Virus record (IMG/VR): IMGVR_UViG_3300050336_000030
Length of the DNA stretch: 64,000 bases
Origin: a virus
Taxonomy: Duplodnaviria; Caudoviricetes
Reading direction: 5' to 3' (one strand)
Below are positions 3,801-57,022 of the stretch, one piece after another; position 1 is the stretch's first letter; every line of letters begins with the position of its first letter. Made by a program: the position numbers and the translations under genes. The notes under the pieces are model-generated. The model was not told the origin of the DNA, did not search any database, and saw nothing but the letters and a program-made list of their open reading frames with translations.

Positions 3801-6800
3801 TTAGGTCTTTGGTTGAATCATTCAAATTATCTAATACACCGCTAGTATTTAAATATGTGGTGACTAAATCATTAATTGATTTTTGAACATCGCCAGTAAC
3901 AGAATTCGCAGATGAAATATTTTTAATAAATTTATCAAATCCAGGAGTATTTCCAAACGCTTTATTTAAAGATTCTATATCTGAAATAGTTATAGATTGT
4001 TTATCTATTAAATTGGCATAAGCCGAATCTAGAGAGTTTAAAGCATTGTCAAATGTATTTAAAGAATCTATAGCAGACGATACAGTACCTATTGAAGTAG
4101 ATAAATTAACAGCATCATCATACAAACTTTTAAATGCATTGCTTTGACCTACAGTTGAAGTAATAGTGTTGTATTGTTCAGCAGCTAAATCTTTTAATGC
4201 AGAAGTAATATCTCCTATTCCTTTTTCACCTGTCACACCGTATTTTTCCCAATCAAAGTCAGCAAATTGTTGTCTTAAATCAATTAAATCTGATGATGAA
4301 AGAGAAGATACATCTGATAAAGATTCTTTTATAGTTGACATTGAAGACTGAAAATTATCTATTGTTTTTGAAATATCTTCATCGGTAAACATAGAAGCCA
4401 AACTGCCTGAAAATTTTGATGATGCTTTTTCTGCTTCTATGCCTTGTTCTGTTAATGCATTTGTGATTTTATATATTTGGTTGAGGAATTCTGTATCCGC
4501 TTCAGATAGTTCTATACCGCTTTCTTTATACGATTCTAAATTTTGAGCAGCACTTGCTAAAGCTCCTTTTAATTCCGCTTTCTTAGCTATTATTTTATCA
4601 TCTTGTTCAATTGATGTTGATTTTGTTTTTTCTAGTTCTTGATATGCTTTTATCATATCTTCAACAGAAGATTTATCTACATCAGTCGTTAATGGTGTCG
4701 GTGCTTTATTTCCTGTTCTTGCGGCATAAGCATCATCGGACGTTGTTCTAGTTTTTTGTTCAGCTTGGTATACAGCATAAGCTCTTTCTGTTTCTTGCTT
4801 GATTAAAATTTTATTTGCTTCTATCTGAGCTTGCAATAGTCCAAGTCTATTTTTTTCAGCTTCCGTTAAATCATCTCTAGCAGATAGACTATCATATTCA
4901 TTGCTTAAATTTTCCGTTTCAGTTCTAAGTTCATTTACTTTACTAATTAATTCATCGGAAGATTTTACATTTTCATCAATTACCGTTTTAAAGGCAAACA
5001 ATCCAGCGACAACTGTGCCTATAAGAAATAGTGGATTCGATAGAAAAGCAACCTTTAAACCATCTAAAGCCGCTGTTAATCCTACGGTTGAAGAAGCATT
5101 GGCAATTTCAGCCTCTGTTAATCCTACCAACATGCCAGATGCTTCAAGTGATTTTAGTTTTAGAATATCTAAACTCTTATAAAATTTTGCAATAGCTACT
5201 ACACCAGCAACTCCCAATACCGTATTTAAAGTTCCAAGATTATTAACCAACTTTAATACTTCAGTACCAAAACTTACAATATTTTTAATCCATTCACTAT
5301 TAATTGTGTTTTTAGAAAGCTGTTCAAACTGACTAGAAAAAGCCTCTGTTCTACCAGCAATAGAATCAAGATATTTTTTATTTTCTTTAGCGGCACTACC
5401 CATGCTATCAGAAGCAGATTTAACAGATTCTTTTACCATATCCCAATTTTGTAATATGGATAGTAGAACATTCTTCTGCCTGGTTCCGGCTGCTTCAAAA
5501 GCTAAAGCTTCTTGAGTGTTCTTATCTAGGTCACCCCACACAGCATCTAAATCGTTAAGTATATCATAAGCACTTCTTAATTGACCTGTTGTTTTATCAA
5601 CAATATTAACTACACCATTCGTTGCATTACTAAAATCCTTTTGCAGTTTGGCAACTGTTTCGACTTGTTCTTCTCCGTCTAATTGAACTGATTGAAGTCG
5701 AGTAAAAATAGTAATGGCACCTGATGCAACTTTTTCCATGTCTCCAAGAGTTGAATAACCAGCAGTTAAAATACCAAGCATTTGTTCAAATGATACTCCA
5801 GCCTGATCAGCAACAGCAGACAGACGGGTAGCTCCATCCACTAAATTATCAAAATCCACTGCCTGAGTATTGGATACTTCATTAATTGCATCAACAATGG
5901 TTGAAGCGTACTCGGCACCTTCTCCTAATCCATTTAATATATGTACTAAATCCTCTGCGGCTATACCAGCATCTTCAATGTTTTCAGATACATTAACCAT
6001 CATCAAAGCTTGTTTTGATAAATTCAATGCATCTTGTAAATCGTACCCAGCACGAACAAAATCTGTTATCGCAGATAGGGTAGTAGTTCCAGTCTTACCA
6101 ACCTGTTCACCTAATGCAAAAGCCTGATCTGTTACATTTTTTAAGCCAGATGCAGTCAAGTCTGTGACTTTAGATAGTTCAACCAATTGCTTGTCAAGTT
6201 CATATACGTTATCTACCATTTTCCGCATTGAATTTATGCCAAGCATCACCGCGCCAGCAGCACTAAAAAATGTGGTGAAGTTTCCAAGGTCGCTTTTGAA
6301 TTGTTGAAACACTGTTTTTCCACTTTGGCCAAGTGATGTAACTTCGGATTTTATATTTGTAAATTCTTTACGTAAATTTTTTAGTCCCGTAGTATCTACA
6401 TCGCTTAAACCATTTTGAATACTGTTCAATCTCTTTACAAAATCATCGCTTAACTTCGTATTTTCTCTTAAATATGTAGTAATTTGATTATCTAATATAT
6501 TCTTATCATATTTTAGTGTGGTGGACTTTTGTTGTTCTAAAGCCGTCTTTTTAAGTTCAGTTTGAATTTGTTTTTCAGTGCTAATTCGCTCTTGCATCTG
6601 AGACTTAATCTGATTGCTAAATACTTTTGCTTGTTCATTTCTCTGTTTTATTTCTAAATCAATAGCACTAAGATTCTTTTTATTAAATTGTTCCTGGGCG
6701 TGTTGAATTTCTTTAATAGAAGCAGTAGCAGTTTTACTATCAATTTCCGCATTAAATTTAATTTTGTATTGTTCTTGAACCTTTTTTATTTCAGACTGAA

Positions 6801-44274: not shown

Positions 44275-44344
44275 TTTATATGCAGAGTGGCAGAGGATAA
44301 AACCTCTGTTAATGCACTAGCTAAACGGTCACAAGTCCGATAAA
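44275..44344 (+). ncRNA. Twister ribozyme, P5-type permutation
   Basis: TTTAT..TGCA GA GTGG CAGAGG ataaaa CCTCTG TTAA TGCA..CGG TCACAAGT CCG ATAAA; P1, P2, P4, P5 and T1 all pair. Confidence 0.75.
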
Positions 44345-44376: not shown

Positions 44377-45114
44377 ATGGCAAGTATAGATTTTATAAGT
44401 AAACGTATCCAAGGTAAACAAAAGGAAATTGACAAATTAAATAAGAAGCTTGAAAGAATTCAGAAAGCTAAACAATCTAATTGGGAAAAGAACCCTTATT
44501 ACTATAGCGAATATGATTTAAACAGTACAGAAAAGGAATTGAATTTTGCAATTAAACAGCTTGATAGTTTGCAATCTGATTTACAAACAGCAAACGAAAA
44601 AGCAAATAGCCGTAATGTATTAGCAATAACTCAATTTTTAGATGCTTGGTTACAAAGAAATATAGAATTCTACACAGAGGAAAAGGAAAAATATGATATA
44701 GCTTTATCTGACTACCGGCAGCATGATAGAGATTACTGTAATTGGTTTAATTCACTAAGACATAATGTAACGGTAGAGAAAAGAAAAGAAGTAGAAAAGA
44801 ATCACAAAGAGTATAGAACTAATTTTATTAAATCTTGGAATACACAATTTGACCACGGAACTAAAGAATGGCATGAAACAATGCATAACGATTTAAAAGA
44901 GGAATACAATCGTAAATACGATTATATAATCGAAAAGACAAACGAAATAGTAGGCGAAATTACAGACGCAAGCTATTTAACAGTAGACGCAAACGGAAAT
45001 TTAAACGGCTACATTATAGGAACAAGAGGAAAAGCAAACGTCAATACAATCGGTGCAGGTGGTTACAATATACAATGTTATCATTTCAGAACGCTAATTC
45101 ATGAAATTAAATAA
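44377..45114 (+). CDS. Conserved phage coiled-coil protein
   Basis: C-terminal [24 protein letters not shown]; strong SD. Confidence 0.7.
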
Positions 45115-45646: not shown

Positions 45647-45756
45647 CTATTTAATATTTATATGTGCTTACAAGATATATAAAACGGCTTGTAAGTAGTT
45701 ATAAAGATTAAATGTAACTAATAAACAATCATATTAAATTATAGGAGGATTTTACA

Positions 45757-47475: not shown

Positions 47476-47573
47476 CAAGATAATATATCATGCACATTAT
47501 AGTTTTATACGTGTTATAATGTGCATGAATAAGTGTTAAAACAACAATTACATATAAATGGAGGTATGAAACT

Positions 47574-52208: not shown

Positions 52209-52325
52209 TACTCTCCATCGTGACAGCGAAATATGGCTGTAGACGCAAAGTTACACGATGGATTGACATTAATAATAATTAATAGTCATATTATTAATTA
52301 AATAATTATGAAAGGAATTATTATT

Positions 52326-52505
52326 ATGGGAGTTTTAGAATTTATTATTGCACTAATAGTTGCTTTTGGTTCTGTCTTTGTTCTTACTACACTTATAGCT
52401 GTAGGATTTAAAGATGAAACAATAGCCATAATTAATGCAATAAAAGGTAAGGAAACTATTAATACAGAAGAAAATATAATTAGTAAAGATGAAATAGAAA
52501 CATAA
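52326..52505 (+). CDS. Small single-TM protein
   Basis: MGVLEFIIALIVAFGSVFVLTTLIAVG; SD AAAGGA. Confidence 0.6.
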   Translation: MGVLEFIIALIVAFGSVFVLTTLIAVGFKDETIAIINAIKGKETINTEENIISKDEIET

Positions 52506-52506
52506 T

Positions 52507-52578
52507 CTCGACTAGACGAGTATAAACAGGCATTAGGTCTAGTGCGCCACACCTGTAATAACATCAGGTGTGGGTTGT
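52507..52578 (+). ncRNA. Pistol self-cleaving ribozyme
   Basis: CTCG ACTAGA CGAG TATAAACAG GCA TTAGG TCTAGT GCG CCACACCTG..CAGGTGTGG GT TGT; P1, pseudoknot, P2, P3, GCG and the G-U cleavage site are all present. Confidence 0.88.
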
Positions 52579-52634
52579 TAGATTATTAATCAATTAACTG
52601 TCTGTATTGGAAAAATAGAAAGGATGTGAGTTAT

Positions 52635-52748
52635 ATGAAACTATTAAAATTCATGTTAACATGGTTACTAATGATAATAATGGCTATTTTTATGCCAGTG
52701 TTGATGTTAATGAAATATAAAGTAACAGTAGAAGCAGAAAGACAATGA
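52635..52748 (+). CDS. 37-aa hydrophobic peptide
   Basis: SD AAGGATGTGA; MKLLKFMLTWLLMIIMAIFMPVLMLMKYKVTVEAERQ. Confidence 0.55.
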   Translation: MKLLKFMLTWLLMIIMAIFMPVLMLMKYKVTVEAERQ

Positions 52749-52777
52749 ATCAATTCTTTGATTAAGAAGTGATGGTG

Positions 52778-52853: not shown

Positions 52854-53075
52854 TTAATTTAGAGATTTTGGATCATCACTTATACCGGTAATATAATCAA
52901 GAGATATATTAAAAAATTTAGCAAGTAAGATTAATTTGTTAAGAGTTGGTTCTTTTGTACCAGACAAATAAAATTGCAAACCTCTTACAGATATACCTAT
53001 AGCGTCAGCTAATTCTTGATTAGATATGTTATTTTTTTCTTTTAATTCTTTAAGCCTAGTATTAAAGTTTGCCAT
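52854..53075 (-). CDS. XRE-family repressor
   Basis: RLKELKEKNNISNQELADAIGIS..EP..LAKFFNISLDYITG. Confidence 0.9.
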   Translation of the reverse strand: MANFNTRLKELKEKNNISNQELADAIGISVRGLQFYLSGTKEPTLNKLILLAKFFNISLDYITGISDDPKSLN

Positions 53076-53177: not shown

Positions 53178-53384
53178 ATGTTAATATTACGATTAAAAAA
53201 TGAAAGATTGAATAGAAATTTAACACAGGAACAATTAGCAGCAATATTGCAAGTGTCACTTAGAACGTATCAACACTTGGAACATGGAACTAAAAAACCG
53301 TCATGTGATTTAGTTATAAAGTTACAAAATTATTTTAACAAAAATATTCAAGAATTACTAGATAAAGTTGAAGAAGATATCTAG
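53178..53384 (+). CDS. Cro-like XRE HTH protein
   Basis: LKNERLNRNLTQEQLAAILQVSLRTYQHLEHGTKKPS; divergent from the repressor. Confidence 0.88.
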   Translation: MLILRLKNERLNRNLTQEQLAAILQVSLRTYQHLEHGTKKPSCDLVIKLQNYFNKNIQELLDKVEEDI

Positions 53385-56937: not shown

Positions 56938-57022
56938 TAATAAGTCTCCGGTGTTAGAGATAGCATCGGAGATATAATCGGAAACATATAAGTAATATGA
57001 AACAATGAAAGGAGCGATAAAT

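Follow-up and report, generated by a model that had tools for sequence, protein, structure and literature searches.

Gene organization of the locus

The window, by which we mean the whole 64,000-nucleotide stretch of DNA that was analysed, corresponds to bases 937-64936 of a 139,975-base phage genome of about 29% GC, which has direct terminal repeats and was rated complete. Coding shifts from the minus to the plus strand near 40 kb, and the arm between 44 and 64 kb is coded wholly on the plus strand, with genes for a primase, a peptide deformylase, a GmrSD_N-domain protein and ParB-like nucleases in the neighbourhood of the locus. The primase is 35-48% identical to its nearest named relatives, which come from phages of [Clostridium] innocuum and Faecalibacterium and from phage contigs of human faeces, suggesting that the host is probably a low-GC gut Bacillota. 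The 371-aa GmrSD_N neighbour had no match in the bacterial genomes scanned, and a megablast of the 44-56 kb region against named phages also gave no match.

Between two plus-strand ORFs, and with phage genes nearby, lies a gap at 52506-52634 that holds the element described here. The upstream ORF (P0001, 52326..52505, +) codes for 59 aa, with a single hydrophobic helix at the N-terminus and an acidic tail behind it, and the downstream ORF (P0002, 52635..52748, +) codes for 37 aa that are mostly one hydrophobic helix. The stop codon of the former, TAA at 52503-05, abuts the element, which begins at the very next base, while 55 nt lie between the 3' end of the element and the 37-aa ORF. The motif GAAAGGA precedes the ATG by 9 nt in the 59-aa ORF and by 10 nt in the 37-aa ORF; genome-wide, 51 of its 63 plus-strand copies precede the start of an ORF of at least 30 aa, compared with 10.7% of random positions. 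The first-pass annotation had described a pistol ribozyme between two small membrane-peptide genes, and both ORFs were indeed found where it had put them, each with a single hydrophobic helix and the motif in front of its ATG. Homology, Pfam, PHROGs, exhaustive HMMER and atlas searches with the two peptides returned nothing or noise, with no homologue, family or look-alike. As no homologues were found, it is solely the ribosome-binding motif and the hydrophobicity of the products that speak for the two ORFs, which we regard as probable genes. Two minus-strand ORFs, 52298-52564 and 52631-52753, overlap the region. No family passed the threshold for either of them, and the first lacks a ribosome-binding site ahead of its start.

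A scan of the sequence between the 59-aa and the 37-aa ORFs revealed neither a promoter-like nor a terminator-like site, so that cleavage of a common transcript in the gap would separate the two ORFs and leave the downstream RNA with a 5'-OH end. Further along, a convergent gene for an Xre/cI-type HTH protein (52854..53075, -; Pfam HTH_3, E 3.6e-15) faces the pair, and the plus strand from the pistol to this gene was found to contain no intrinsic terminator. Beyond the HTH gene, a palindromic operator/promoter region feeds a new plus-strand module. The convergent gene is one half of a divergent pair of small HTH genes, the other being at 53178-53384 on the plus strand, and between the two are a perfect palindrome ATGAACTATAGTTCAT (53149-64), a near-copy of it (53112-29) and an 11/12 promoter match. 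This layout, which resembles a repressor/operator switch, stands ahead of the GmrSD_N-domain gene and two ParB-like nuclease genes. On the other side of the locus, the 117-nt gap upstream of the 59-aa ORF contains a branched hairpin (52214-52262, +; -20.7 kcal/mol, z -4.2), in which an 8-bp outer stem CCAUCGUG/CACGAUGG encloses two small hairpins. It had no Rfam match and is followed directly by a TTGACA promoter-like site.

Identity and architecture of the ribozyme

Weinberg and colleagues are said to have discovered the pistol class of self-cleaving ribozymes, which has reportedly been described since 2015. Structures of pistol ribozymes have been solved, among them that of env25 (5K7C), and to our knowledge pistols neither have a ligand nor keep to one partner gene. 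By the definition of Harris and colleagues (2015, PMC4604425), a pistol has three stems and a pseudoknot, together with ten nucleotides that are highly conserved and a junction whose length is fixed. The reaction is an internal phosphoester transfer that proceeds at about 10 per min at physiological Mg2+, one product ending in a 2',3'-cyclic phosphate and the other beginning with a 5'-OH (PMC4604425).

The element in the gap is a genuine and complete copy of this class, a new example rather than a new element. The Rfam Pistol model (RF02679; gathering score 34.5) matched 52506-52579 on the plus strand over its full length, from position 1 to 68 of 68, and scored it at 59.6 bits. The E value was 2.5e-8 when the 64-kb window was searched with all 4227 Rfam families and 1.3e-11 for the genome. 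This is the covariance model search that had been proposed as a check of the first reading from the letters, and its outcome upholds the claim of a complete pistol, with every element then listed in place. The order of elements within the originally proposed span, 52507-52578, also stood; the model match is one base wider at each end.

The P1 hairpin (52507..52520, +) pairs CUCG at 52507-10 with CGAG at 52517-20 around a 6-nt loop, ACUAGA (52511-16), and this loop pairs in turn with UCUAGU at 52538..52543 (+) to form a pseudoknot of six Watson-Crick pairs out of six. A linker UAUAAACA(G) at 52521-29 (+), holding AUAAA at 52522-26, leads into the 5' strand of P2, GGCA at 52529-32 (+), which pairs with UGUU at 52576-79 through A-U, C-G, G.U and G.U. 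P3 (52547..52573, +; -14.6 kcal/mol) is a hairpin of 9 bp with a 9-nt loop, formed by CCACACCUG at 52547-55 and CAGGUGUGG at 52565-73. Between P3 and P2 is a 2-nt junction containing the predicted scissile step, G52574/U52575 (+), which follows from the register of the covariance model and from the site known for the class (PMC4604425). The same step had been proposed from the letters, and it agrees with the model alignment as well as with the catalytic positions given in PMC6154101. Its home in a phage of a low-GC lineage is also in keeping with the class. In a few details the copy departs from the usual pistol: a U-U mismatch closes P1 at its base (U52506/U52521), where most pistols have A-U, the first P3 pair is C-G and not U.G, the P3 loop is longer, and an extra G.U lies at the outer end of P2.

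The catalytic core (52533..52546, +) was placed in env25 numbering by the covariance model alignment, with roles taken from the review of pistol crystal structures (PMC6154101). Read directly, it holds UUAGG at 52533-37 and GCG at 52544-46. U29, U30 and A31 correspond to 52533-35, purine-32 to G52536, the G33-C41 pair to G52537-C52545, the general base G40 to G52544, and G42 to G52546. In the structures reviewed, position 32 is a purine, A and G both being active, the G33-C41 pair supports a triple with G40, the general base, G42 is among the core positions, and G53-U54 is the scissile step (PMC6154101). None of the catalytic and conserved positions is altered in the window pistol, and all are invariant across an alignment of 13 copies.

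Comparison with other pistols

A core-string scan of the viral collection led to nine other phage contigs, all of which scored as pistols, at 44-78 bits. In the 13-copy alignment P1 was 97% paired, with compensatory changes, and in the pseudoknot all six pairs had changed on both sides among the 13 natural pistols while staying 97% paired, whereas slid controls gave 25-41%. Compensatory change of this kind indicates that the RNA fold is under selection. P3 was a hairpin in 13 of 13 pistols compared, with unrelated sequences, and the scissile junction was GU in 50 of the 52 pistols among the matches listed. Of the 12 other phage pistols that were scored (range 44-78), 11 exceed the window pistol. 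This places it at the low end and, together with the two G.U pairs in P2 and the mismatched U-U that closes P1, might point to an inactive relic. We consider a relic very improbable, however, since the conserved and catalytic positions are all intact, P1, the pseudoknot and P3 are perfect helices, and the third P2 pair is most often G.U in the natural copies of the comparison.

A 193-kb phage (G011; L029 / L145, G011:C1:37608-37681) has a pistol whose first 41 nt are identical to those in the window, P1 and pseudoknot included, and whose P3 is unrelated. When that genome was compared with 20 kb of the window arm, the two had this pistol core in common, 43 nt at 98%, and otherwise a single stretch of 53 nt, 81% identical, in another part of the arm. 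The relatives to which the primase and the 371-aa neighbour led (L008-L012) had no pistol anywhere in their records; in L008 and L009, the homologue of the 371-aa GmrSD_N protein is 55% identical. From these pistol-less relatives, and from the sharing of mainly the core with the 193-kb phage, it appears that the ribozyme is a module which is gained and lost independently of its neighbours. In proviruses L008 and L009 the slot of the pistol is taken by a tRNA gene (5886-5956), which there lies 45 nt upstream of the GmrSD_N gene.

Such isolated sharing could also mean that the pistol matters mainly as DNA, a conserved island for recombination or cassette exchange to which RNA cleavage is secondary. 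P1 and the pseudoknot are identical in the window and the 193-kb phage, despite free variation at these positions in the class, and the neighbour genes differed in every phage sampled, both of which would fit such an island. On the other hand, a shared stretch of 43 nt offers little length for homologous exchange, neither a repeat nor a link to a recombinase turned up at the locus, and the compensatory changes are a mark of selection on the RNA fold. We therefore rate this explanation, too, as having very little chance of being right.

Two other records add to the picture of pistol-bearing phages. An 8.5-kb viral fragment (L022, G014:C1:3615-6680) was found to carry four pistols at 69-75 bits within 2 kb, every one in a gap between small genes. 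A 144-kb provirus (L027 / L147, G009:C1:77091-81548, minus) has a pistol and a Twister-P5 ribozyme 4.3 kb from each other on the same strand, in the order opposite to that of the window.

Complementarity of the flanking sequences

It had further been suggested that the flanks ATAATCT and AGATTAT can close the ribozyme. The complementarity exists: ATAATCT at 52502-08 and AGATTAT at 52580-86 form 7 bp that are present in the nested minimum-energy fold and overlap the first two pairs of P1. As a feature of the class it did not hold up, for among the 52 pistols of the matches listed the longest flanking helix averaged 3.88 in natural pistols and 3.83 in permuted flank pairs, and a helix of at least 7 bp occurred in 2 of 52 natural pistols where 1.6 were expected. 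A closing helix was thus rejected as a class feature of the ribozyme, and it is treated here as a product of chance or, at the most, a peculiarity of this locus. By the fold model it could compete with folding of the ribozyme. A longer nested fold also gives alternative pairings; a nested model cannot represent the pseudoknot, and these were hence given no weight.

Position of phage pistols relative to stop codons

To describe where pistols lie in phage genomes, a census was made with one degenerate core pattern, the matches to which were filtered on P1, the pseudoknot, P3, P2 and junction length, and ORFs were called with a home-made caller. At least 52 distinct, structurally valid phage pistols were obtained. 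Among the matches listed, 34 of 47 upstream ORFs of at least 50 aa ended within 10 nt of the first base of the ribozyme, the median gap from the upstream stop to the pistol being 2-3 nt, and the median distance from the cut to the next start supported by a ribosome-binding site was about 70 nt. Among these matches, 28 pistols had the upstream stop as their nearer neighbour and 6 the next start (p 2e-4), and after dereplication by flank 29 of 44 remained within about 10 nt and the split became 24 versus 6 (p 0.0014). The window pistol, with a gap of 0 and a leader of 60 nt, is typical of the census. The neighbour genes vary from phage to phage, and among the phages sampled it is in the window alone that membrane peptides flank the pistol on either side.

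Perreault and colleagues (2011, PMC3088659), who described clustered hammerheads in prophages, did not mention stop codons. Like the window pistol, those hammerheads lie on the same strand, in intergenic gaps and between small phage genes of varying identity, and the role proposed for them is that of cutting long phage transcripts (PMC3088659). The two arrangements differ in that clustered hammerheads flank single genes or short blocks, while this genome has two ribozymes, of other classes and 8.2 kb apart, with an AT-rich motif or plain hairpins at most of the other junctions. A single further pistol adds little, as the class is known and gaps between phage genes are its known habitat; the placement against stop codons, by contrast, provides a concrete and testable clue to what phage pistols do.

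One reading of this clue is that the pistol is a module of the 3' end of the upstream cistron and not a leader of the downstream one, that it is coupled to translation, and that it here serves as a terminator-free operon end. Because the ribozyme starts on the stop codon and is cut 5 nt from its own 3' end, the upstream message would gain a pseudoknotted cap ending in a cyclic phosphate. Were this so, the footprint of the terminating ribosome would overlap P1 and the pseudoknot and could couple cleavage to translation, and read-through RNA antisense to the convergent repressor gene would be passed to a 5'-to-3' exonuclease. We put this forward as a rather unlikely account of the locus.

More doubtful still is that cleavage is conditional, either since a ribosome at the abutting stop unwinds P1 and the pseudoknot, in which case only poorly translated messages would be cut, or since the flanking helix traps an inactive fold. 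The beginning of the pistol right after a stop, with a placement that is strongly non-random across pistols, would suit the ribosome route, and the 7-bp helix that overlaps two P1 pairs in the minimum-energy fold would suit the other. Yet pistols cleave within seconds (PMC4604425), probably ahead of any ribosome, the class shows no excess of the flanking helix, and no ligand-binding extension was seen, the P3 loop being a plain 9 nt; taken with these points, conditional cleavage seems improbable.

Proposed role in transcript processing

Ribozyme processing of long phage transcripts has been proposed (PMC3088659; PMC6765202), and although reviews consider the role of these RNAs in bacteria and phages unresolved, the processing of polycistronic messages is the main suggestion (PMC6765202; PMC3088659). 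For the present locus we think it quite likely that a functional pistol on a plus-strand early transcript uncouples the fates of two halves of a polycistronic message. During transcription P1 would fold first, the P1 loop would then pair with the P2-P3 junction to give the pseudoknot, and P3 and P2 would follow. With G52544 as the general base, the 2'-oxygen of G52574 would attack the phosphate next to it, and the RNA would be cut at G52574|U52575. The upstream piece would carry the 59-aa ORF, with nearly the whole ribozyme fold right behind its stop, and would end in a 2',3'-cyclic phosphate. The downstream piece would begin with a 5'-OH and consist of a predicted 60-nt unstructured leader (52575..52634, +) with the ribosome-binding site GAAAGGA at 52618-24, followed by the 37-aa ORF. 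With the message split in this way, the two halves could meet separate fates. We infer that cleavage takes place in vivo, that it is constitutive and that it alters the stability of each half. The leader proved to be no more structured than its shuffles (z +0.85), so that no switch over the ribosome-binding site is apparent in it, and the idea of one was rejected.

Two known systems help to place this proposal. In the early genes of phage T7, RNase III sites cut the polycistronic early transcript and leave a structured 3' end on the upstream message, the processing being done by a host protein enzyme and yielding 5'-phosphate ends. By analogy the window RNA would, unlike that of T7, cut itself and leave a 5'-OH and a cyclic phosphate. 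The glmS ribozyme of Bacillota depends on a metabolite as cofactor and belongs to a single gene. Self-cleavage of glmS likewise occurs in an mRNA leader and leaves a 5'-OH (PMC11780869), and in Bacillus subtilis this 5'-OH product is degraded by RNase J1 (PMC11780869). If the host is one of the Bacillota, decay of the downstream RNA and less antisense read-through into the HTH gene would be predicted from the glmS and RNase J1 precedent. The phage genome itself was searched for enzymes able to heal or seal cleaved ends, and no RtcB, RNA ligase or AAA_33/PNK-type kinase was found.

That precedent can be carried further, to the view that the purpose of the cut is 3'-end formation and the clearing of read-through, with a protected upstream 3' end and RNase J-type decay of the 5'-OH RNA that also keeps the 37-aa peptide low and limits transcription antisense to the convergent HTH gene. 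The B. subtilis product would be a parallel, the nearest named primase relatives are from phages of Bacillota, the stretch up to the HTH gene at 52854-53075 is free of intrinsic terminators, and the retention of nearly the whole ribozyme on the upstream fragment, behind the stop, is general in the census. However, the RNase J argument presumes a Bacillota host, which is no more than probable, the second ribozyme of the genome, a Twister-P5 at 44281-44340, lies near the start of the arm and not at an operon end, and the good ribosome-binding site and the open 60-nt leader past the cut favour downstream expression over removal. For these reasons we hold clearing to be unlikely as the purpose of the pistol, and prefer to see the ribozyme as a means of uncoupling the two halves of the message.

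Other elements at gene junctions

The Twister-P5 ribozyme (RF02684; 44281..44340, +) scored 51.8 bits against a gathering score of 37.6 and is situated 8.2 kb upstream of the pistol on the same strand, with about 17 genes between them. The upstream stop, at 44269-71, comes 10 nt before its first base, and the ATG at 44377 starts 36 nt past its end, a slot of the same kind as that of the pistol. A permissive Rfam rescan of 40-64 kb yielded no further family beyond the pistol and Twister-P5, and in the rest of the genome Rfam found one tRNA only; the genome thus has exactly two self-cleaving ribozymes, both in the plus-strand arm. With two ribozymes set among junctions that have an AT-rich motif or hairpins, this 140-kb genome offers a simple system in which to ask whether junction elements interchange.

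Several of these junction elements were observed in the arm. Plain hairpins occur at 45665-45697, 56944-56973 and 47490-47526 on the plus strand and include stems of 10 bp (z -4.5) and of 13 bp (z -6.0), and among the same junctions there is a 12-bp perfect palindrome, ATGCACATTATA/TATAATGTGCAT, that is promoter-like on both strands. An AT-rich quasi-palindrome of 18 bp, approximately ATNRAA-N6-TTTTAT, was seen at or just after the stop codons of many junctions between 44010 and 63481 (+), and a loose TTTTAT-like pattern was present at 16 of 38 junctions, in the same slot as that of the two ribozymes. Insertion of the pistol into such a motif was considered and rejected, as its arms match the motif consensus poorly. 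In the motif itself, the conservation of the right-arm sequence is greater than the complementarity of the arms.
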